From positions 1,050,001 to 1,082,000 of the forward strand of contig NZ_AP028907.1 of the NCBI RefSeq assembly GCF_036323395.1: a stretch of 32,000 bases of DNA. Reading direction: 5' to 3'. Positions 1 through 11,507 of this stretch are shown here, in pieces (the stretch's first letter is position 1; each line of letters opens with the position of its first letter). Under the pieces are notes generated by a model. It searched no databases, was not told the origin of the DNA, and saw only the letters and a list, made by a program, of their open reading frames with translations. This DNA comes from Pyrodictium abyssi. Its GTDB lineage: Archaea > Thermoproteota > Thermoprotei_A > Sulfolobales > Pyrodictiaceae. Both the position numbers and the translations under genes were made by a program.

Positions 1-641
1 CGCAGGGGCTGCCCGGCTAGCGGGTGGTGGTACTCTATAAGCCACACCGGGTAGTGCGCCACGCCCACGAGCCCCGCCCGGCTCTCGACGCTGCCTCTGC
101 ACCCGGCTAGCCGCGCCTCACCCGCAGCCCGGTACTCCACACGGGCCCGGAGTGCACTACACCTGGGCTCTGGGCTAGCGTCGGGCTGGTGGAACACGCC
201 CCTACGCGCCCTCCGCGGGTCGTAGGGCTCCCTCCCGACGACGGGGAACCTGTAGCCGTGCTCGAGCCCCGGGAGCGGGAGCCTAGACGTGGCCAGCCAC
301 GTCTCCTCCCGCTCCTCTCGCGCTCCCTCGCAGCCCTCCACCCAGGCCTCTGCGCTGCAGATGTAGAGCGGTAGGTAGTGGAGCTCGCTCCGGGCTAACG
401 AGGCTGTCTCGGCTATGTCCGCTGGCGCGCCGGGGAGCATACGGGCCCGTGAAACGGCTAGGAGGAACGCCTCGCCGTCGTCGAGCCTCGGTGGGTAGTA
501 GTACTGCCTTGTAGCCTCCTCCCCAGTCTTAGCCACGACCGTGGTCCCGCAGTACGGGCAGACGGCGTACACAGCACCCTTCGGCACCTCGAACACAGCG
601 CCACAGTATGGGCACCGTAGCCTCCTCAAGCCCTGGGTCAC
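1..641 (-). CDS. Zn-ribbon protein, N-terminal part only (gene runs off the left edge); paralog of the 638..1759 product
   Basis: Absent from the ORF track because it has no stop inside the window. My own minus-strand translation from GTG 641..639 reads MTQGLRRLRCPYCGAVFEVPKGAVYAVCPYCGTTVVAKTGEEATRQYYYPPRLDDGEAFLLAVSRARMLPG... and stays open to base 1. The start overlaps the upstream stop as GTGA. It has the same CxxC-x14-CxxC N-terminus and a similar following segment as the upstream neighbour. Confidence 0.6.
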   Translation of the reverse strand, partial: MTQGLRRLRCPYCGAVFEVPKGAVYAVCPYCGTTVVAKTGEEATRQYYYPPRLDDGEAFLLAVSRARMLPGAPADIAETASLARSELHYLPLYICSAEAWVEGCEGAREEREETWLATSRLPLPGLEHGYRFPVVGREPYDPRRARRGVFHQPDASPEPRCSALRARVEYRAAGEARLAGCRGSVESRAGLVGVAHYPVWLIEYHHPLAGQPL

Positions 642-1759
642 CTTCTCGCCAGCCTCTCAGCCTGGGTGCCTATCGTCGTGAATAGGCTGCGGAGCCACGA
701 GCCCTCACGGCCCTTCTCTATCCTAGCCTCGCTTAGCCCAGCTCGCGCCGCGAGGTAGCCCAGCACAGCGCCGAGCCCTAGCGTGGCCCCAGCTACAGCT
801 AGGCCCCCGACGCCGCCTCCCGCAGCCGTGTAGAGCACGGCAGCAGCTCCGCCACCACCCCCGCCGAGGAGCCCAGCGAGCATGAGGAAGAAGCTCCGCT
901 GCCTGCCGGTCAGGGGCTCTTCGCGTAGCAGCGGGTACATGTCCCACCCGGAGAAGTAGGCGCGGTACACCCTGCCCTCGCAGACGTAGAACACCTTGGT
1001 TAGGGGGAGCAGCACCGGCCCACGGACCTCGAGCTCGGGGAACTCGCACGTGATAGTCCTATGGACAACGTTGACAGCAGTGACCGTGCCGGGGCCGTGG
1101 TAGCTGGCCCTAGCCCTCCGCCTAATCTCCGCCTCAACCCTCTCGCGGAGCCAGTCGCATGCATCGTCGCGCACGGTCTCCTCCGCCTCCTGGGGGCCGT
1201 AGTCTGCAGCGAGCGCCGTGTACTCCCCCTTCCTCCACTCCACGCTGCCCAGGCCCACGAGCTCTGGGCGCGTGGAGAGGTAGTGCTCGGCCAGCTCGTC
1301 CACAGCCTCTTCGCCGAGGCTCCTCTTGCCGCTGACTAGAGCCTCGAAGCTCTGCTCGTAGACGCCCGAGACGTGGAACGGCACGGTACGTGTCTCGGTG
1401 TAGACACGGTCGCCCTTCCTCCGGGAGACGGTGACGATGAGGAACCCGGAAGCCTCGTACCGGCTATAGAGCCGGCCACGCGCCTCGTAGAAGGGCACGA
1501 GCACGGTCTCGATACGGGCTGGCTCCACGTTGAGCCCGCGGAGGTCTGGGTCCCTGCGCGCAAGCTCCATGAAGGCCTCCCAGGCCCTATCCATGCTCGG
1601 CGGCTTAGCGGCGAACACGCTGCCGGGCTCGCCCTTAACCCAGTTGGGCTTCCCGCAGTACGGGCAGACCACGAGAACCGTGTCGGGGCCGACCCGCAGC
1701 GGTGAGCCGCAGTAGCTGCACCGCAGCCTCTGCACGCTGACCGCCGGTAAGCCAGCCAT
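638..1759 (-). CDS. Zn-ribbon protein with C-terminal Gly-rich transmembrane hairpin; function unknown
   Basis: 373-aa ORF. The N-terminus carries CSYCGSPLRVGPDTVLVVCPYCG (CxxC-x14-CxxC). The C-terminus, SFFLMLAGLLGGGGGGAAAVLYTAAGGGVGGLAVAGATLGLGAVLGYLAA, is hydrophobic and glycine-zipper-like, followed by a basic amphipathic tail. It starts 25 nt downstream of the SPFH gene on the same strand. Confidence 0.75.
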   Translation of the reverse strand: MAGLPAVSVQRLRCSYCGSPLRVGPDTVLVVCPYCGKPNWVKGEPGSVFAAKPPSMDRAWEAFMELARRDPDLRGLNVEPARIETVLVPFYEARGRLYSRYEASGFLIVTVSRRKGDRVYTETRTVPFHVSGVYEQSFEALVSGKRSLGEEAVDELAEHYLSTRPELVGLGSVEWRKGEYTALAADYGPQEAEETVRDDACDWLRERVEAEIRRRARASYHGPGTVTAVNVVHRTITCEFPELEVRGPVLLPLTKVFYVCEGRVYRAYFSGWDMYPLLREEPLTGRQRSFFLMLAGLLGGGGGGAAAVLYTAAGGGVGGLAVAGATLGLGAVLGYLAARAGLSEARIEKGREGSWLRSLFTTIGTQAERLARR

Positions 1760-1784
1760 GCAGGCCGCCTCCCTGCCGGCCCTA

Positions 1785-2918
1785 CTAGGCCTCTAGCTGT
1801 GCTCCGCACACGGGGCAGAACCGCGCCTCAGCTGGCGCTACGTGGCCACGAGGGCACCAGAGTATCCTCTTGCCGCAGAAGGGGCAGAACCCGGCACCCC
1901 GGAGCGACGGAGGCAGCTCCCGCCCACAGTAGGGGCACCGCGGCGTATAGCTCTGCTGGCTGCCAGCCCCCCTCTGCTGCTGGGCAGCGGCAGCGCCTAC
2001 AGCGGCGGCCCCAGCGGCCTGCACGGGCTGGGGCTGCTGGGCCTGTTGGAGGAACTGCTGGAGCATAGGCAGGAACGCTGCTAGGCCCACCACGTTGCCT
2101 CCCTGGGCCTTCGCCAGCGCGTCCATGAGGCGGCGCTGTAGGTCGTACTGCTGCATGAACTGCGCCACCTGAGGGTTGGTGGCGGCAAGAGCCAGCATCT
2201 GGAAGTAGCCGCTCTCCTGCAGCTTCCTGAGCCACTCCTCAGGGATATCCACGTCCACAGCTATGCTCTTGACCCTCAGGTACCAGTTCTCCTGCAGCTC
2301 CCTCGCAACCTGACTCCTCAGGAGCTCCTTGACCCGTGCCTTGCCCTGGTGCACGTCAATGCTGAGGAAGCTTCCCAGGAACGACTCCACCCAGTCATTT
2401 ATGTAGAGCCTTATCCTCTCCTCGAGCTCCTCCGTCGTGAAGCTCTTGTCCTCAGCGGCTATCTTTAGCGCGAACTTCTTAATGTCCTCGTCGTTCTCTG
2501 GCATCACTACGTGTATCTTCCCCCGGTACTGGATGGGCACACCGTCCTTACTATTCCCCTGGCCGCCGAAAGCGATATCCTTCTCCGTAACGTTGACAAA
2601 GACTATGCGTACCGGTATGGGGACGCCCTCGTAGAGCTCCTGCATTACGCCTCGCAGGCCCGGCACGTGGGCGGTGTCGAGCGGCCACTCGCCCTGCCGG
2701 AGGACAGCCAGCACCTTGCCGCCGCGGATGACGATAGCCGCCTGGTTCGGCTGCACGACTATTCTGGAGCCGTAGGGTATCATCCGCTGTGGGTACTCCC
2801 AGACCAGCTCCCCGGGGTGGAAGTCGTGCGATATTACTAGCAGCTTCCCGGCCCCGGCTTTGGCTACCTTACCCCCTATCCTGCCCAGCTTATCGAAGAA
2901 CGACACGACCAGGCTCAC
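1785..2918 (-). CDS. SPFH/Band-7 superfamily protein with C-terminal double Zn-ribbon (COG4260 / B. subtilis YdjI-like architecture)
   Basis: 377-aa ORF. The N-terminal segment ELVWEYPQRMIPYGSRIVVQPNQAAIVIRGGKV...VRIVFVNVTE resembles the YdjI-type SPFH core. A Q/A-rich linker follows, then CPYCG-x12-CPFCG and C-x3-H...CPVCG ribbons. Its GTG start overlaps the upstream stop (GTGA at 2918..2915). Confidence 0.85.
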   Translation of the reverse strand: MSLVVSFFDKLGRIGGKVAKAGAGKLLVISHDFHPGELVWEYPQRMIPYGSRIVVQPNQAAIVIRGGKVLAVLRQGEWPLDTAHVPGLRGVMQELYEGVPIPVRIVFVNVTEKDIAFGGQGNSKDGVPIQYRGKIHVVMPENDEDIKKFALKIAAEDKSFTTEELEERIRLYINDWVESFLGSFLSIDVHQGKARVKELLRSQVARELQENWYLRVKSIAVDVDIPEEWLRKLQESGYFQMLALAATNPQVAQFMQQYDLQRRLMDALAKAQGGNVVGLAAFLPMLQQFLQQAQQPQPVQAAGAAAVGAAAAQQQRGAGSQQSYTPRCPYCGRELPPSLRGAGFCPFCGKRILWCPRGHVAPAEARFCPVCGAQLEA

Positions 2919-3697
2919 CCCCTACCGAATACGCGTGAGAGCAGGATCCGTGCACGGGAAACAGCTGGGCCGAGCCCCTCGGCTACAGCCCCAGCAGCGG
3001 CCCGTAGCCGCCCAGCCACGGTGTCGCCGCTGGAGGCGAACTGGAGGAACCGGCGCCTCTCCTCGTAGAGCTCGCGGAGGCTCCTAGCAACCTCCTCCAG
3101 CCTGCCGAGGAGCTCCAGGGCCTTCTGGTAGTCGCCGAGGCCCACGGCGGCCCGCAGCTCCCGCGCGGTCCTAGCTGCAGCCTCGCCAAGCCCTATCATA
3201 GAGTCGTCGTACTCGCATAGCCGGAGTATCTCGTCCTCCCTTATCGCCCGTGCAGCCCCTACCGGGGCCCAGCCAGAGTCGGCGTAGAGTATGTCGCTGA
3301 CAAGCCCGGAGACCTCGGCGCCTATGCTCCGGAGCCTCTCCGGGAGAACTGGCAGTGCCTGCAGAGCACCCGTGCCCTGCTGTACCGGGGCGGTGGGCGG
3401 GACAGCGCTAAGCATTGGCGTGGAGGCGAAGAACGCCTGCCCGGCCGCAGAGGCGAGTGCCTGCCGTGCAGCCTCCACCTCCCGGTAGGCCTCGTCGAGC
3501 CGCCCAGCCACGTACCGGCGTATCTCCACGTCCAGCTCCCGGAGCTTCTCCCGCCGGAGAAACCCCCGGGCGAACGGCACAGCCCGGAACATGTTCTGTA
3601 TCCAGGCGTAGTGGGGCCGGAGGCACAGCTCGTAGCCCGGGCCACCAGAGCTACTGTTGTCGGACAACACCCAGCACCCGATAAGCCATTTAGACAC
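2915..3697 (-). CDS. Hypothetical alpha-helical protein, first gene of the SPFH operon
   Basis: 260-aa ORF from GTG 3697; an alternative ATG at 3592 gives MFRAVPFARGFLRREKLRELDVEIRRYV... It has long charged helices (N-terminal coiled-coil-like, C-terminal TPR-like DYQKALELLGRLEEVARSLRELYEERRRF), a Pro-rich middle and an amphipathic C-terminus. I recognise no family motif. Confidence 0.6.
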   Translation of the reverse strand: MSKWLIGCWVLSDNSSSGGPGYELCLRPHYAWIQNMFRAVPFARGFLRREKLRELDVEIRRYVAGRLDEAYREVEAARQALASAAGQAFFASTPMLSAVPPTAPVQQGTGALQALPVLPERLRSIGAEVSGLVSDILYADSGWAPVGAARAIREDEILRLCEYDDSMIGLGEAAARTARELRAAVGLGDYQKALELLGRLEEVARSLRELYEERRRFLQFASSGDTVAGRLRAAAGAVAEGLGPAVSRARILLSRVFGRG

Positions 3698-4274: not shown

Positions 4275-4583
4275 CTATCCTCTCTCCTCCGGGGCCTGCT
4301 GGGGCCTGCAGAAGACCCATGGCCTGTGGCGGACGACCCGGTAGCCTAGCCTCCTGTAGAGCCTCACCGCGGCAGTGTTGCCCTCGGCTACGTGCAGCAT
4401 CGCTGCTGCTCCTGCTGATAGCGCCGCCTCGGTCACGGAGGATACAGCGGTCTTGCCGTAGCCCCGGCTCCGGTACCGCGGGTCCGTGTACACACCGCCA
4501 ATAACCCACACCTCGCGCATTCTGATATAGGCGCTGGCGATGGAGACTACCTCGCTGCCGGCCAGGGCCCCGTGGTACCTCAT
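4275..4583 (-). CDS. GNAT N-acetyltransferase, C-terminal (acetyl-CoA-binding) fragment of an apparently frameshifted gene
   Basis: VWVIGGVYTDPRYRSRGYGKTAVSSVTEAALSAGAAAMLHVAEGNTAAVRLYRRLGY contains the GNAT motif A (R-x-x-G-x-G/A) and motif B. The reading frame stays homologous-looking upstream of the ATG (AAIATGPVSGEEARAALRA) back to a TAG at 4643..4641. Confidence 0.7.
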   Translation of the reverse strand: MRYHGALAGSEVVSIASAYIRMREVWVIGGVYTDPRYRSRGYGKTAVSSVTEAALSAGAAAMLHVAEGNTAAVRLYRRLGYRVVRHRPWVFCRPQQAPEERG

Positions 4584-4948
4584 AGCCCGGAGAGCCGCCC
4601 GCGCCTCTTCCCCCGAAACGGGCCCTGTAGCGATAGCAGCCTAGCCAAGGCCTCAACGTGTCCGGGATTACTAGGGCTTAGCCTCACAACGGGGTGGCCA
4701 CGGTACGGGGTGAAGTCCTCCTCGCCCACAGCCATGTCCAGGAAGCTCTCCACACGGGTAATGTGTCCGGGCTTTAGCGCCTCGAGCACGCGGGGTAGAA
4801 GACCCGGATCGTAGAGCTGGATAACAGTTTCCCTCGTGCACCGGTGCTCCTCTAGGAGAGGGTCTACGCGGCCCCAGAGGTGCACAGAGTCCCTCACGGG
4901 GCCACGCCACCGGAGGAGGTAGCCAGCTATAGCGTCCTGGTCTACCAC
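4580..4948 (-). CDS. N-terminal fragment of the same GNAT gene (frameshifted)
   Basis: 122-aa ORF ending in ...VVRLSPSNPGHVEALARLLS, followed by an Arg/Gly-rich tail (LQGPFRGKRRGRLSGL) that reads like out-of-frame translation. Joining it to the +1 frame at about 4620-4643 restores a contiguous GNAT of about 225 aa. Confidence 0.55.
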   Translation of the reverse strand: MVDQDAIAGYLLRWRGPVRDSVHLWGRVDPLLEEHRCTRETVIQLYDPGLLPRVLEALKPGHITRVESFLDMAVGEEDFTPYRGHPVVRLSPSNPGHVEALARLLSLQGPFRGKRRGRLSGL

Positions 4949-5275: not shown

Positions 5276-5611
5276 TTGAGCATCGAGGAGTACAGGCTAC
5301 TGATGCGGAGAGCGTTAATGTTCCTAGACGAGGCCCGTGAGGCCTACAGTAGGGACCGCCACGATCTAGCTATGTTCCTCGCCGAGCAGGCTCTACAGCT
5401 CTTCCTCAAGGCGCAGCTCCTCCGTATGCTCGGCGACTACCCTCGTACGCATAGTGTACGGCAGCTCCTCACCATGCTCGGGAAGGCGCTAGGCGATAAC
5501 GCTGAGAAGGAGATAACGGCCTTCATTAGGCGAGAGAGGCCCCGCCTATCAGAGCTAGAGGACGTATACATAGTCTCACAGGTACGGGTTCCGCACCTAT
5601 ACCAGGGATGA
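5276..5611 (+). CDS. HEPN domain protein (COG2250-type), truncated by an apparent frameshift
   Basis: TTG start. The segment AMFLAEQALQLFLKAQLLRMLGDYPRTHSVRQLL is a typical HEPN helix pair. The conserved C-terminus (SHRYGFRTYTRDDAEDILSTVERVMGFVEELL) is encoded in the +1 frame from 5574 to a TAG at 5703..5705. Confidence 0.7.
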   Translation: MSIEEYRLLMRRALMFLDEAREAYSRDRHDLAMFLAEQALQLFLKAQLLRMLGDYPRTHSVRQLLTMLGKALGDNAEKEITAFIRRERPRLSELEDVYIVSQVRVPHLYQG

Positions 5612-5652: not shown

Positions 5653-5889
5653 TTGTCGAAGAGCTACTCAGATGTACTGCTCGAGACGATGCTGGAGAGG
5701 GCTAGCATCCTCAGGAACTGGAGGAAGATAGCGAGTAGGGTAGCAGACGCTGTGAGAGAAGTGTGTCCGGAAGCACGTGTATACGTAGCTGGTAGTGTCG
5801 CGAGGGGCGAGTGGATAGCAGCAAGCGATATAGACATCGTTGTCGTGTTGCCGCGCAGCCCAGTATGCGGGAGGCGGCACAAATTATAG
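5653..5889 (+). CDS. Minimal nucleotidyltransferase (MNT), N-terminal catalytic fragment; partner of the HEPN gene
   Basis: VYVAGSVARGEWIAASDIDIVVVL matches the G-S-x(9-10)-D-x-D polymerase-beta NTase motif. An alternative in-frame ATG lies at 5689. The ORF ends prematurely (PVCGRRHKL*) after an apparent frameshift near 5857-5865. Confidence 0.75.
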   Translation: MSKSYSDVLLETMLERASILRNWRKIASRVADAVREVCPEARVYVAGSVARGEWIAASDIDIVVVLPRSPVCGRRHKL

Positions 5890-6005
5890 AACATGTATGG
5901 AGCAGGCTAGGGCTCCCTCCGAGTAATCCGCTCGAGGTACACGTAGTCGGGCCCAAGGACCTTGAGAGGTATCTGAGAAAAGGCGTGGTAGCACAGCTAG
6001 CATAG
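5811..6005 (+). CDS. C-terminal fragment of the MNT gene (-1 frame)
   Basis: From about 5865 this frame reads MREAAQIIEHVWSRLGLPPSNPLEVHVVGPKDLERYLRKGVVAQLA. That continues the MNT fold expected after DIDIVVVLPRSP. The first ~18 codons of the ORF are overlap noise. Confidence 0.5.
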   Translation: MDSSKRYRHRCRVAAQPSMREAAQIIEHVWSRLGLPPSNPLEVHVVGPKDLERYLRKGVVAQLA

Positions 6006-6044: not shown

Positions 6045-7184
6045 TTAGCTCCTTTCCGGGGCGTCTACCGGTAGGCTGCCGGTTTCCTTGCCTATTACCT
6101 TCTGTAGCCTCTTGATGGTCAGCTCTACTAGTGGTGTGCGTAGCGGCTTCTCGGGTATCAGGCCCTGCGGCCTATACAGCAGCACAGCGACTATCAGTAG
6201 GCCCATTATCACGTAGCGTAGGAACGGCAGTGCGGCGGCCACGGCGTCTGGTACGCTTATCCCTAGGGTCTCTAGCGCCGAGGTGTTGAGGAACACGTTT
6301 ATCGCCGCTACCGCGGCTGCGCCGAGCAGCGCGCCTACGTTGTTCGCTGCGCCGCCGAGCATCACGGCTACTACGACCTCGAAGGTCCTCTCCGGCTTGA
6401 AGGTGTTCGCCTGGACGCTCCCCGAGTAGAACACCAGGAGAGCGCCGGCTATCGCCGCCATGGCGGAGCCGACGGCTAGCACCTGTAGCCTGAGCCGGGC
6501 CACGTTGTAGCCGTACACCTGGGCTGCTAGCTCGTCGTCCCTCATCGCCTTTAGGGCGCGGCCCCAGGGGCTGTTGGCCAGCATCTCGGCGTAGACGTAG
6601 AAGAGCGCTGCGAACAGCAGCACAAGCATAGCGTACATTAGGTCTATCCTGGCCTTCACCGGGTACCAGGCGAAGGGCGTCGGTATGGCTGTGAGGCCGT
6701 TGAAGCTGCAGACAGGCCACTGGCTGTTGTAGGCTATCAGCCTCACAACCTCGCCCATTGCTAGCAGGGTTATCGCGAGGAAGTCGCCGCCGAGCCGCAG
6801 CGTCGGGTAGCTAGAGAGTATACCGGACACCGCGCCTATCACGCCAGCAGCTACCAGTGCTAGCGCGAAGAGCGTGAAGTACTGACCCGGAGAGAGCAGG
6901 TGCTGTGAGGCAGCGGTGGAGAGTATGTTGTACGCCTCCGGGCTGCAGTAGACCGGGCCCTCAGTGCTTGCTGCCACGGTTGCCCCGGCTGTCTGGGCTG
7001 CCCAGTGTAGGCCTAGCCACGCTGCCAGGGCGCCGGCAGAGTAGGCGCCAAGGCTCATGAACAATACCTTGCCGAAGTTTGGTACGCCGCCGTAGCCGTA
7101 CTCTAGGTTGAAGCTCAGCGCTAGTATCGCGTAGACGCCGAACCAGACAATCCACTGCGAGACTATACCCATCACGCCCTCCAT
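6045..7184 (-). CDS. livM: Branched-chain amino-acid ABC transporter permease (LivM family)
   Basis: 379-aa polytopic membrane protein. The N-terminus WFGVYAILALSFNLEYGYGGVPNFGKVLFMSLGAY is LivM-like. It is the last gene of the liv operon. Confidence 0.9.
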   Translation of the reverse strand: MEGVMGIVSQWIVWFGVYAILALSFNLEYGYGGVPNFGKVLFMSLGAYSAGALAAWLGLHWAAQTAGATVAASTEGPVYCSPEAYNILSTAASQHLLSPGQYFTLFALALVAAGVIGAVSGILSSYPTLRLGGDFLAITLLAMGEVVRLIAYNSQWPVCSFNGLTAIPTPFAWYPVKARIDLMYAMLVLLFAALFYVYAEMLANSPWGRALKAMRDDELAAQVYGYNVARLRLQVLAVGSAMAAIAGALLVFYSGSVQANTFKPERTFEVVVAVMLGGAANNVGALLGAAAVAAINVFLNTSALETLGISVPDAVAAALPFLRYVIMGLLIVAVLLYRPQGLIPEKPLRTPLVELTIKRLQKVIGKETGSLPVDAPERS

Positions 7185-7187
7185 GGC

Positions 7188-8144
7188 TCACGCCCTCCTC
7201 TTGAGTGATAGCGACTCGAGCCTTATCACGCCCTCAGGCCGGTACATGAGCACGACTATGAGGGCCACGAGGGCTATCACGGGCGCGTAGGCCGTGCTGA
7301 GCCCGAGGTAGGTGTTCGCGAGGAAGCTCACAACCTGCTCAGCGAGGCCCAGGAGCACGCCGGAGACTATGGAGCCGTAGAAAGTGAAGCCGCCCATAGT
7401 CGCGGCGGCGAATATCCAGAGCAGCATCAGCCAGCCCGACTCCGGGTTCACGTAGTAGTAGTACGCGTAGACGAAGCCAGCGAAGCCCGCTAGGCCGCCG
7501 CCTATAAGCCAGGTTATCCGCCGGATAGCGTAGATGTTGATACCCGTCACCCGGGCGAGCACCGGGTTGCTAGCAGTAGCCCTCATCGCCTTACCCGTCC
7601 GGGTCCTGGTGAACAACCAGTGGAGCGCAGCAGCGAACACCACAGCGGCGCCTATGGCTAGCAGGTGGCTGGTCTCAACCGAGACTATACCGCCTATGCT
7701 CAGTATCGTGGCGCTCCGCACCGGGAGCGCTGCCTCGAGCAGCCCAGCAGCAGAGGCAGCTACGGCTAGCAGCGAGTACCGGAGCACAAGGCCGACACCT
7801 ATGCTGGCGACCAGTAGGTGTAGCGGCGTAGCGCCCCTCTTCCATAGAGGCTTGAAGGCTAGCTCGTCGCTCGTAAGCGCCGCCGCGGCGCCGACGACTA
7901 CTGCGATGAGCAGCGCGGCGGCTAGCCCGGCTCCCCCAACGCCAGCGGCCACGGCCGCTAGGTAGGCGGCGTAGGCGCCGTAGGTTATGTACTCGGCGTA
8001 GGCGAAGTTGGGCACCTTTGTCACGCGGAATATAAGCGTGAGCCCGAGAGCCATTAGGCCGTAGAGGCTGCCCACACGCAGCCCGTTAACCACCGCGCCG
8101 AGCACTCCGTAGAGGATAGCAGACTCGACCATCCCGGGACACAC
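7188..8144 (-). CDS. livH: Branched-chain amino-acid ABC transporter permease (LivH family)
   Basis: Contains LYGLMALGLTLIFRVTKVPNFAYAEYITYGAY. The likely true start is ATG 8132 (MVESAILYG), which has GGAGGTG 9 nt upstream. The track start at 8144 is a GTG. Confidence 0.9.
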   Translation of the reverse strand: MCPGMVESAILYGVLGAVVNGLRVGSLYGLMALGLTLIFRVTKVPNFAYAEYITYGAYAAYLAAVAAGVGGAGLAAALLIAVVVGAAAALTSDELAFKPLWKRGATPLHLLVASIGVGLVLRYSLLAVAASAAGLLEAALPVRSATILSIGGIVSVETSHLLAIGAAVVFAAALHWLFTRTRTGKAMRATASNPVLARVTGINIYAIRRITWLIGGGLAGFAGFVYAYYYYVNPESGWLMLLWIFAAATMGGFTFYGSIVSGVLLGLAEQVVSFLANTYLGLSTAYAPVIALVALIVVLMYRPEGVIRLESLSLKRRA

Positions 8145-8177
8145 CTCCCCTCCTCTTCTCCTCCCCTGGTCACCGGT

Positions 8178-8948
8178 CTAGCCGTGGTGTATGCCGAGGA
8201 AGAGCTCCTGGAGGTCACGGCGGGAAAGAATCTCCTGGCCAGAGCCCTCAGCAGCGACACGGCCAGCTACGAGCACGTAGCCGCGGTCAGCAAGCTCCAG
8301 GGCTCGGCGCGCGTGCTGCTCCACTATGAGTATCGAGACCCCGGCCTCCTCGCGTATCTGTTTAAGCGAGTCGAGAAGCTCTATAGCAATCTTCGGCGCG
8401 AGACCCGCAGTAGGCTCGTCGAGTAGCAGCAGCCTCGGCCGGGCCATGAGCGCGCGGCCGACAGCCAGCATCTGGCGCTGGCCACCGCTAAGCGCGCCCG
8501 CCAGGGTCTTGCGGAACTCTCTGAGCACCGGGAAGATGTTGAACACCATCTCCATCGCCTCCCTTATCTTGTTCTCGTCCCTCTCCAGGTAGGCGCCCAT
8601 CTCCAGGTTCTCCTCCACGGTGAGGTCGGGGAACACGTTGTCGGTCTGAGGCACGTAGCCCATGCCTAGCCTCGTCTTAGCCTCCGGCGGCAGCCAGGTC
8701 ACGTCACGGCCCTCAAAGACCACCTTGCCGCCGAACACCTTGGCGACGCCGTATATGGTCTTCAGCAGCGTGCTCTTACCGCTACCGTTAGGCCCGACGA
8801 GCGCCACTATCTCGCCGCGGTCGATGTAAATGCTAACACCCTGTATGATGACCATCTTGCCGTAGCCGCCTACCAGGTCCTCCGTGGACAGTATGGTCGT
8901 GCCCGGCATGCCGCGATACACCCCGCCTAGCCCTCTATGCGGAGCCAA
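8178..8948 (-). CDS. livF: Branched-chain amino-acid ABC transporter ATP-binding protein (LivF family)
   Basis: Walker A GPNGSGKST, signature LSGGQRQMLAVGRAL and Walker B LLLLDEP. An alternative start at ATG 8909 (MPGTTILS) would remove the 14-nt overlap with livG. Confidence 0.9.
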   Translation of the reverse strand: MAPHRGLGGVYRGMPGTTILSTEDLVGGYGKMVIIQGVSIYIDRGEIVALVGPNGSGKSTLLKTIYGVAKVFGGKVVFEGRDVTWLPPEAKTRLGMGYVPQTDNVFPDLTVEENLEMGAYLERDENKIREAMEMVFNIFPVLREFRKTLAGALSGGQRQMLAVGRALMARPRLLLLDEPTAGLAPKIAIELLDSLKQIREEAGVSILIVEQHARRALELADRGYVLVAGRVAAEGSGQEILSRRDLQELFLGIHHG

Positions 8949-10127: not shown

Positions 10128-11507
10128 TTACTTGTACCACTCTATCTGGCCGGTAGCTGCGTGCCAGATGCCTACCTCCTTGAACTGGCCGTCCTTCACA
10201 GTTACTAGCGCGTAGTCGGCGAACGCGGCGTCACCGTTCTCGTTCAGCATCTTGTGGCCGGTAGCGCCCATGAAGTGGAAGGCCACTGTGGGCAGCACGG
10301 CCTTGATAGCCTGGCCGTCGTACTTGCCGGCGGCTAGTACGCTTAGCATCGCTATCCAGGCGGCGTCATAGGCGTAGTAGGCGTAGGTTGTCGGGTCCTC
10401 GCCGTACTTAGCCTTATAGGCCTCCTCGAAGTGCGCTGTCACAGGGTTCCTGGCTATAGCGGGCTTGGTTACTAGGAGGTTGACCTTCTCCAGGAACTTG
10501 GCTATCTCCGGCTTCTCTAGGAACGTCTTACGGGCCATGCTGTCGGGGCCGAACCAGCGCACCTTGCCTAGCACGTCTATCTTGGACGCCTGCTCTAGTA
10601 TCTTGGTGCCGTCGTCGTCAAAGGCTATTATGAGCACGGCGGTCTTGTCGTCGGCGCCCATCTGCTGTACCTTGACGGCTAGCTGGTTGACCTCGTTGGT
10701 TAGGTCAGGCTTGTCGGGCTGGTAGAGTATCTTCTCCACCTTGCCGCCTAGCTGCTTGAAGGTCTCCTCTACTAGCTTGGCTAGGCCGCTGCCGTAGTCG
10801 TCGTTACGGGCTATTATCACTAGCTTGGTGAAGCCTAGGCTGTGTATTATCTTGGCTAGCGCTGGGCCCTGGACAGTGTCCGGAGGCGCCATCCTGAAGA
10901 CGTAGTCATCCGGGAAGGCGGCGGCAGCACCAGTGCTGCTCGGGCTTATGATGACTATGTGCTGCTCGTTGGCTATGGGCATCACGGCGCGGGTCTCGCT
11001 GGTGGATAGCGGGCCTACCACCACCTGTATACCCTGGCTAGCAAACCTCTTGATCACGTTGACGGCCTCCTGGGGGTCGGTCTTGGTGTCCTCGTGTATC
11101 GGCTTGAACCTGAACGGCGCGCCCGCCCTCTCTAGTAGCTGGTTCATCTCCTCTATGGCTAGTAGCGCGCCCTTGAGGCGGCGCGGACCGTCCACAGCAT
11201 AGCCGCCGCTCACGGCTATGGCGAGGCCTATTGGTATCTCCTTGGGGAGGCCCTCAGCGGTGCCGGTGGCCTGCATGGTCTGCGTAACGGTGGGCGTCGC
11301 GGCCGGTGTAGCGGTGGCTGGCGGCGATACGGTGGCTACCGGCGAGGTAGCCGGGGCGCTTGTAGGCGAGACTGTTGTAGGCGCTGGTGCGGCCTGCTCA
11401 CCGGTCATTGCTAGGTAGCCTATGGCTGCTACAGCGATTAGGGCTATGGCTACACCTATTATACGTGGGTCCATCTTCGCCATGACTCTATCTCCCTCCC
11501 TTCGCAC
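10128..11507 (-). CDS. livJ: Branched-chain amino-acid ABC transporter substrate-binding protein (LivJ/K family), membrane-anchored with Thr/Pro/Ala-rich stalk
   Basis: It has an N-terminal TM helix (IIGVAIALIAVAAIGYLAM), then the linker APAPTTVSPTSAPATSPVATVSPPATATPAATPTVTQT, then a type-I periplasmic-binding fold pattern (IPIGLAIAVSGGYA...VVGPLSTSE...). An alternative start lies at ATG 11483. Confidence 0.85.
   Translation of the reverse strand: MRREGDRVMAKMDPRIIGVAIALIAVAAIGYLAMTGEQAAPAPTTVSPTSAPATSPVATVSPPATATPAATPTVTQTMQATGTAEGLPKEIPIGLAIAVSGGYAVDGPRRLKGALLAIEEMNQLLERAGAPFRFKPIHEDTKTDPQEAVNVIKRFASQGIQVVVGPLSTSETRAVMPIANEQHIVIISPSSTGAAAAFPDDYVFRMAPPDTVQGPALAKIIHSLGFTKLVIIARNDDYGSGLAKLVEETFKQLGGKVEKILYQPDKPDLTNEVNQLAVKVQQMGADDKTAVLIIAFDDDGTKILEQASKIDVLGKVRWFGPDSMARKTFLEKPEIAKFLEKVNLLVTKPAIARNPVTAHFEEAYKAKYGEDPTTYAYYAYDAAWIAMLSVLAAGKYDGQAIKAVLPTVAFHFMGATGHKMLNENGDAAFADYALVTVKDGQFKEVGIWHAATGQIEWYK

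Follow-up and report, generated by a model that had tools for sequence, protein, structure and literature searches.

A compact cluster of four genes lies at the beginning of a stretch of 32,000 nucleotides (nt) of the Pyrodictium abyssi chromosome (contig NZ_AP028907.1, positions 1,050,001 to 1,082,000), which was analyzed at its full length and is referred to below as the window. P. abyssi was assigned in this analysis to the lineage Thermoproteota; Desulfurococcales; Pyrodictiaceae. The four open reading frames (ORFs), g1 to g4, are all located on the minus strand and occupy window positions 1..3697. The first of them, g1 (2915..3697), encodes 260 amino acids (aa) when read from GTG 3697 and represents an all-helical protein of a new family. 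It is followed by g2 (1785..2918, 377 aa), a soluble SPFH protein of the YdjI/SamI (Band_7_1) type, by g3 (638..1759, 373 aa), a membrane protein of the YdjG/SamG family, and by g4 (1..641), a g3 paralog of the same family that is truncated by the window edge, with 213 codons visible and orthologs of 289-319 aa. As set out below, these four products are probably subunits of one membrane-associated SPFH complex that faces the cytoplasm and is an archaeal relative of the SamG/SamI system of Bacillus subtilis.

The translation starts of three of the genes had to be considered in detail. For g1, the start is ambiguous between GTG 3697 and TTG 3667, the latter being the NCBI call (250 aa). Since the N-termini of all 16 g2 homologs compared (16/16) read MSFFDKLG or a close variant of it, the true g2 start is most likely GTG 2906, giving MSFFDKLGR. 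Similarly, g4 orthologs open with M-x-V/L-K/R-C-P-Y-C-G, and because these N-termini correspond to TTG 629, this codon is most likely the true g4 start (MRRLRCPYCG). A purine-rich motif is situated exactly 8 nt before each internal start, namely GGGGGTGA-N8-GTG (2915..2922, minus strand, including the g1 stop codon and preceding the probable g2 GTG), GGGAGG-N8-ATG (1768..1773, minus strand, preceding the g3 ATG at 1759), and AGGTGA-N8-TTG (638..643, minus strand, including the g3 stop codon and preceding the probable g4 TTG 629). We infer that GGGGGTGA, GGGAGG, and AGGTGA are Shine-Dalgarno-like sites. A preliminary description of this locus, made from the sequence alone, had proposed 4-nt GTGA overlaps between start and stop codons; such overlaps arise when the first in-frame GTG of each gene is taken as its start, and they are doubtful, as the starts deduced from homolog N-termini turn them into parts of the Shine-Dalgarno-like motifs. 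The tight packing of four same-strand genes described there was retained, with 8-25 nt between genes after start revision. The cluster thus looks like a single operon, the genes of which are plausibly co-translated. Rfam and tRNA scans of the window returned no matches, and a promoter and terminator search with bacterial sigma-70 and intrinsic-terminator models was set aside as uninformative for an archaeon.

The most direct link to a studied system is provided by g2. Reference sequences were taken from a B. subtilis-type pspA-ydjGHI (also pspA-samGHI) locus, which was retrieved from a metagenome via a published ydjG primer (PMC8581546) and is regarded as authentic because its termini match the published primers, its YdjH matches TPM_phosphatase (E 7.6e-22), and its YdjG matches Zn_Ribbon_TF. 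BLASTP aligned g2 with YdjI end to end, through the SPFH domain, the linker, and the zinc ribbon (E 6e-13). In addition, the g2 hidden Markov model (HMM) scored YdjI with 71 bits, and a phmmer query with YdjI matched all archaeal g2 proteins. The SPFH domain (2211..2801, minus strand, approximately aa 40-236) exceeded the Pfam cut-offs for both Band_7 (aa 54-235; 43.9 bits, cut-off 23.6, E 3.5e-11) and Band_7_1 (aa 40-236; 38.9 bits, cut-off 24, E 9.5e-10), and the SPFH assignment originally made for the 1785..2918 product is hence confirmed by domain scores and full-length alignment alike. A transmembrane (TM) segment is absent, the highest 19-residue hydropathy value being 1.15 with zero windows above 1.4; the N-terminus is amphipathic. 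The SPFH domain is followed by a low-complexity linker rich in Q, A, and P (1953..2066, minus strand, approximately aa 285-322) and by a C-terminal double zinc ribbon (1791..1946, minus strand; Pfam aa 325-376), in which CPYC-x12-CPFC precedes C-x3-H...CPVC. At this C-terminus, Zn_Ribbon_1 and DUF7575 passed their Pfam cut-offs, and DZR was slightly under its own. Of the two zinc ribbons originally proposed here, the first aligned with the YdjI ribbon in BLASTP; the second is non-canonical, with its C-x3-H ... CxxC arrangement. Taken together, the profile and alignment scores identify g2 as a YdjI/SamI-type SPFH protein without a membrane anchor. It resembles the Pfam family Band_7_1 (PF13421)/COG4260 in scoring above the gathering threshold, in its MSFFDK-type start, and in its C-terminal zinc ribbon, and differs from it in belonging to a distant archaeal clade and in having the extra non-canonical ribbon. 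In a search of 5.8 billion proteins, the closest g2 match outside this clade was 22% identical. The nearest SPFH protein from outside the clade (P0017) had no YdjG-like neighbor, and its context was not informative.

The membrane component of the cluster is represented by g3 and g4. A zinc ribbon with the spacing CxxC-x14-CxxC opens both proteins, as previously noted, and is found at 1655..1720 in g3 (minus strand, aa 14-35) and at 549..614 in g4 (minus strand). This arrangement is invariant in both families (C14, C17, C32, and C35 in g3), and the ribbon regions of the two proteins are 42% identical. In g3, the ribbon is followed by an alpha/beta domain with long beta-hairpins and helices (914..1615, minus strand, aa 49-282), predicted to be cytoplasmic, and by a Gly-rich TM hairpin (734..907, minus strand, aa 285-342), consisting of helices 285-312 and 317-342 in the AlphaFold2 (AF2) model. 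This model, with a predicted local distance difference test (pLDDT) score of 88, comprises the ribbon, the alpha/beta domain, two TM helices, and a terminal helix; the latter is short and amphipathic and is located at the C-terminus, after the hairpin. The hydropathy peaks agree with the hairpin helices of the model, so that the Gly-rich TM hairpin initially seen at the end of the first paralog was recovered by two approaches, and full-length g4 orthologs share the entire layout of g3, including the C-terminal Gly-rich TM hairpin. Because basic residues flank the g3 hairpin on both sides and the inter-helix loop consists of just a few glycines, both termini of g3, and hence all of its soluble parts, are predicted to be cytoplasmic. 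Comparison of the g3 and g4 profiles by hhalign (99.3%, E 1e-20, 228 columns) marks the two proteins as full-length paralogs.

Both paralogs were also related to YdjG. The g3 profile scored B. subtilis YdjG with 48.5 bits in hmmsearch, hhalign aligned YdjG with g3 (96.5%, E 8.7e-10, 255 columns, YdjG residues 51-313) and with g4 (94.9%, E 4.4e-8, 228 columns), and a single phmmer query with YdjG matched archaeal g3 orthologs with E-values from 4e-10 to 1e-5. By these profile comparisons, g3 and g4 are remote homologs of YdjG/SamG, and the partners of the SPFH protein consequently do not fall into characterized families of unrelated function. An exhaustive HMMER search with the g3 profile recovered 1187 representative clusters at E<=1e-3, including 140 at E<=1e-10; the distant matches are bacterial-looking proteins with two zinc ribbons, the same central domain, and one C-terminal TM segment. 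The central domain shared by YdjG and g3 is represented by no Pfam-A or NCBIfam model. Ravi et al. described YdjG as consisting of two zinc ribbons, an uncharacterized YpeB-related NTF2-like domain, and a TM segment; the NTF2-like fold was not confirmed for g3, as its model gave no fold match in the PDB by Foldseek. Long-beta-hairpin entries in the PDB (aerolysin, secretins, and CDTb) might have pointed to a pore-forming toxin, and this reading of g3 was rejected because the scores were non-significant (E>0.1, TM-scores of ~0.1) and a cytoplasmic location is predicted for the domain. As a separate observation, the g3 model matched giant-virus proteins annotated as ‘DnaJ-like subfamily C member 3’ in BFVD, originating from Edafosvirus (E 2.9e-8) and Yasminevirus (E 1e-6), each over ~270-300 columns, so that the YdjG-type alpha/beta fold is present in Nucleocytoviricota as well, possibly fused to a J domain.

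To evaluate the conservation of the arrangement, loci were collected from homolog contexts and from a scan of GTDB genomes with the g3 alignment, and each locus was analyzed with the four family HMMs. The census was based on two g3 peptide patterns and missed P. abyssi itself; it therefore reports presence and cannot establish absence in lineages such as the Sulfolobales. The four families were found linked in at least 14 independent loci from several archaeal phyla, and this recurrence argues against a chance arrangement. They co-occur, with the gene order largely conserved, in Pyrodictiaceae, Hyperthermus, Acidilobaceae, other Desulfurococcales, Methanomethylicota, Culexarchaeota, and Nitrososphaerota. 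The order g1>g2>g3>g4 is present in P. abyssi, in locus L004 (g2 identity 89%), in L001 and L002 (~60%), in a Hyperthermus metagenome-assembled genome (MAG), a Methanomethylicota MAG, Ca. Culexmicrobium (Culexarchaeota), and a Nitrososphaerota MAG, as well as in L006 with a small TM ORF inserted. In Acidilobaceae MAGs, other Desulfurococcales MAGs, and L005, g2>g3>g4 is followed closely by g1 in convergent orientation. A Bathyarchaeota MAG has a gene for a zinc ribbon and TM protein ahead of g1>g2, and a Methanomethylophilus MAG (L024) shows a similar layout, its matches to the zinc ribbon protein and g1 being marginal (E ~4e-5, 20 bits; E 4.8e-5 for g1).

Within these loci, g3 and g4 are neighbors in every complete case, and the SPFH gene is located directly upstream of the pair in the window and in L001-L006, L009-L014, L016-L018, and L021. 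In at least 12 loci, g1 is a direct neighbor, placed upstream or, in convergent orientation, downstream. Across Thermoproteota and beyond, the SPFH gene is accompanied by the helical protein and by both zinc ribbon and TM paralogs, which decides a check proposed in the preliminary description in favor of its interpretation. Each locus carries one copy of the module, and identity drops with taxonomic distance, so inheritance looks vertical. Pairwise identities correlate strongly from one family to another (r = 0.86-0.95, a value to which the shared species phylogeny contributes), which is consistent with inheritance of g1-g4 as a unit. The flanking genes vary by locus and are all of the housekeeping type (transporters, ribosomal proteins, tRNA synthetase, and ribonucleotide reductase). 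The YdjG-like g3-g4 pair is the tightest core of the module and may act on its own. L023 has just one g4-like gene.

Several individual loci showed further particularities. In L003, the position upstream of the SPFH gene that belongs to g1 in the window is taken by two other genes (6416-7914), encoding a multi-TM protein of 291 aa and a 202-aa protein that weakly matches DUF5789. In L020, a low-GC Thermoprotei MAG, the g3-g4 pair (7013-8917) lies between ribonucleotide reductase and biotin-ligase-like genes, with no SPFH or g1 gene within 7 kb. Small multi-TM ORFs, situated inside the module or ending it, were found in L006 (6718-7017, 99 aa) and L005 (8943-9269, 108 aa); nothing equivalent is present in the P. 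abyssi window, and these ORFs may represent optional accessory subunits. In L004, which is the locus most closely related to the window, the g4 ortholog (10282-11200) is split into three frames near its 3' end, every piece matching the g4 HMM, and the break is either an assembly frameshift or a pseudogene.

The remaining member, g1, could not be connected to any described family. Approximately 16 close homologs were found, and shorter orthologs (166-190 aa) were recovered from distant archaea by HMM. Two motifs are conserved, an N-terminal P-G-x-x-G-Y/F-x-x-x-E-x-x-R-E-x-D-x-x-x-R and a central YADSGWAP / xGYAP (G-Y/W-A/S-P). The AF2 model is all-helical with long helical hairpins (pLDDT 71). 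Comparison with Pfam and NCBIfam found no relative of g1, and a sequence profile search of the PDB returned designed helical bundles only. A DUF2564 assignment for one ortholog (22.6 bits, below the cut-off) was dismissed because it was not reproduced in any other g1 member. On these searches, g1 is a new helical family without detectable relative.

Since the cluster was compared from the outset with the envelope-stress operon of Bacillus, the correspondence deserves closer consideration (PMC8581546; PMC9239133; PMC11237479; bioRxiv 10.64898/2026.02.06.704340). B. subtilis YdjI is soluble and depends on YdjG and YdjH to be recruited to the membrane, and PspA is then recruited by YdjI (PMC8581546; bioRxiv 10.64898/2026.02.06.704340). 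YdjI and g2 share a Band_7_1 SPFH domain, the lack of a TM segment, a low-complexity linker, which has an equivalent position in SamI (bioRxiv 10.64898/2026.02.06.704340), and a C-terminal zinc ribbon. YdjG is homologous to g3 and g4, each combining zinc ribbon, alpha/beta domain, and C-terminal TM region, and both operons are compact and same-stranded. In contrast to Bacillus, the archaeal loci lack PspA and the TPM protein YdjH: phmmer queries with PspA and with YdjH gave no matches in any archaeal locus examined, and no TPM_phosphatase match was found among the operon products or listed neighbors. Furthermore, the archaeal module contains two YdjG paralogs whereas Bacillus has one, includes the additional helical protein g1, has no extracytoplasmic part, and follows the order g1-SPFH-G-G' as opposed to pspA-G-H-I. 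The description of the cluster as ‘ydjGHI-like’ was accordingly borne out for its YdjG and YdjI parts and not for YdjH, for which no TPM equivalent was found; on the homology evidence, ‘ydjG/ydjI-like’ is the better term. Other SPFH operons, namely stomatin/NfeD, flotillin/YuaF-YqiJ, and HflK/C-FtsH (PMC2636767), likewise combine an SPFH gene with one or more dedicated membrane partners in a conserved operon. They differ from the present cluster in that g2 has no N-terminal membrane anchor and its partners are YdjG-type zinc ribbon proteins and a new helical protein, not NfeD, YuaF, or FtsH.

Based on these comparisons, the function of the module is most likely that of a membrane scaffold or stress module facing the cytoplasm. 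In the arrangement that we consider probable, g3 and g4 would together serve as a membrane anchor of hetero-oligomeric structure, in which the second YdjG paralog fills the role held by the TPM protein YdjH in Bacillus. By this anchor, the soluble g2 SPFH oligomer would be brought to the inner membrane face, the zinc ribbons and alpha/beta domains being the probable contacts. The g1 protein, usually encoded directly upstream of the SPFH gene, would bind g2 as an adaptor or effector in the place of PspA. According to the predicted topology, all soluble domains are cytoplasmic and no more than a few loop residues are exposed outside. Because the module has no extracytoplasmic domain, a signal would have to be sensed by the Gly-zipper helices inside the bilayer or else on the cytoplasmic side. 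Organization or stabilization of the membrane under stress would be the likely role of the complex.

A number of observations weigh against this interpretation. The stress role is drawn from Bacillus alone. In two-hybrid experiments, YdjH bound YdjI and PspA, and YdjG bound YdjH only (PMC8581546); since it was YdjH and not YdjG that contacted YdjI, direct anchoring of an SPFH protein by YdjG-like proteins is an extrapolation. The membrane proteins also differ in architecture, g3 and g4 having one zinc ribbon and a two-helix Gly-rich TM hairpin and YdjG having two zinc ribbons and a single TM segment. For g1, there is no recognizable fold relative, and confidence in its model is moderate (pLDDT 71). 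Finally, the association of the families is not strict: L003 has no g1 homolog within 8 kb, L020 carries g3-g4 only, and in L026 g1 stands alone, apart from the other families.

One of these exceptions, L020, bears on an alternative, according to which the module is mainly a device for membrane-stress signaling and not a structural scaffold. The zinc ribbon proteins g3 and g4 would then act as intramembrane sensors, and their cytoplasmic ribbons and alpha/beta domains would relay the signal, perhaps through contact with nucleic acid or with a regulator, whereas the SPFH protein and g1 would only tune this output in space or time. The occurrence of the g3-g4 pair in L020 without an SPFH gene or g1 suggests that the pair has a function of its own. 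Support from Bacillus comes from the view of SamG-SamH as a membrane-integral stress sensor that is tuned by SamI, with PspA-independent phenotypes: loss of SamI is reported to leave the activity of SamG-SamH unbalanced, resulting in constitutive stress signaling and global changes in transcription, independently of PspA (bioRxiv 10.64898/2026.02.06.704340). Popp et al. also assigned the YdjG zinc ribbon to the TFIIB type and considered a regulatory role possible. Yet no DNA-binding or enzymatic domain besides the zinc ribbons was detected with Pfam and NCBIfam, and no transcription factor is conserved in the neighborhood of the loci examined. Signaling of this kind, which overlaps with the scaffold explanation and is compatible with it, is considered unlikely as the main description of the module.

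It might also be supposed that g1 belongs to the PspA/ESCRT-III superfamily as a cryptic member that has diverged extremely, and that the locus is a true Psp-like operon for membrane repair, in which an effector polymer would act with an SPFH adaptor and receptors in the membrane. In favor of this, g1 is placed beside the SPFH gene, just like pspA in the ydj operon, its AF2 model contains long helical hairpins, and its short, all-helical orthologs begin with a short hydrophobic and charged segment followed by a charged helix ‘KxRExxREdDrxlR’. This layout, we presume, loosely recalls the helices alpha0 and alpha1 of ESCRT-III and PspA. Against it, the tests with Pfam, hhalign, Foldseek, and PDB profiles were negative or returned non-specific helical bundles. 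Fifteen diverse g1 members gave no match to PspA_IM30 or Snf7 even at E<=10, the hhalign probability of g1 with B. subtilis PspA was 0.1%, and among the top 50 Foldseek matches of the g1 model (pLDDT 71) in the PDB there was no PspA, Vipp1, or ESCRT-III entry and none with E<0.01. What g1 shares with PspA, Vipp1, and ESCRT-III is just the genomic position next to an SPFH gene and an all-helical composition, with no detectable similarity in sequence, profile, or fold. We consider a hidden PspA quite improbable, and the characterization of the cluster as lacking PspA was upheld by the absence of any PspA/Snf7 signal.

Beyond the cluster, the window represents ordinary chromosome and contains a GNAT gene, a HEPN/MNT pair, a branched-chain amino-acid ABC transporter, an M48 peptidase, TatC, a NiFe hydrogenase, an XPB-like helicase, and a qNOR-like oxidase. 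A 102-aa ORF (4275-4583, minus strand) matches only positions 35-116 of the 116-position GNAT profile and overlaps by 4 nt with an upstream 122-aa ORF without Pfam match (4580-4948, minus strand), which may indicate that an acetyltransferase gene has been split or frameshifted, or that two genes are arranged here in succession. The HEPN gene (5276-5611, plus strand) and the following MNT gene (5653-5889, plus strand) resemble a toxin-antitoxin pair. The MNT ORF is just 78 aa long and is overlapped in another frame by the ORF 5811-6005 (plus strand), and the gene may be frameshifted.

The presence of this HEPN/MNT pair 1.6 kb from the module, together with the occurrence of some SPFH and zinc ribbon proteins in conflict systems according to the literature retrieved, is what speaks for the suggestion that the module is an antiviral membrane-integrity sensor or an abortive-infection system; this is very improbable and was left unsupported, considering that no family of PADLOC-DB 2.0 was matched at E<=0.1 by g1, g2, g3, or one complete g4 ortholog, that the flanks are housekeeping in all loci, that one copy per locus with an identity pattern as expected for vertical inheritance was found, and that Pfam and NCBIfam revealed no effector domain such as that of a nuclease, protease, pore-forming toxin, or NADase. 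A search against PHROGs gave zinc ribbon noise only.

Returning to the SPFH complex, the families of g2, g3, and g4 are already known, though poorly understood; it is the composition that is new, with no PspA, no TPM protein, two hairpin-anchored YdjG paralogs, and a new helical partner. A literature search of incomplete coverage found no archaeal description of the module or of its distribution in Thermoproteati (formerly TACK), in line with the initial impression that it had not been described in Crenarchaeota. To our knowledge, SamG/H/I-PspA of B. subtilis is the sole case of a studied soluble SPFH protein with dedicated membrane-recruiting partners. Because the core is kept across Thermoproteota and related phyla without PspA or TPM, the SPFH-YdjG pairing is pointed to as an old, self-sufficient unit, which agrees with the PspA-independent phenotypes of SamGHI (bioRxiv 10.64898/2026.02.06.704340). 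The archaeal module also offers a minimal thermostable set of four proteins for structural work, adds g1 as an uncharacterized family of partners, and shows the central domain of YdjG to define a family of large size.

As a more speculative and tentative suggestion, g1 may be the first representative of a new class of helical effectors associated with the membrane, the counterpart of PspA in several phyla of Thermoproteati. If this were true, g1 would be recruited by a YdjI-type SPFH scaffold held by the YdjG/YdjG' pair and would stabilize or remodel damaged membrane. The SPFH-YdjG core would then be an ancient module of Bacteria and Archaea that was coupled to different effectors, and hyperthermophiles would possess a membrane-maintenance system independent of ESCRT-III. 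In any case, the module is a candidate system for membrane maintenance in these organisms, whose membranes face constant thermal stress.

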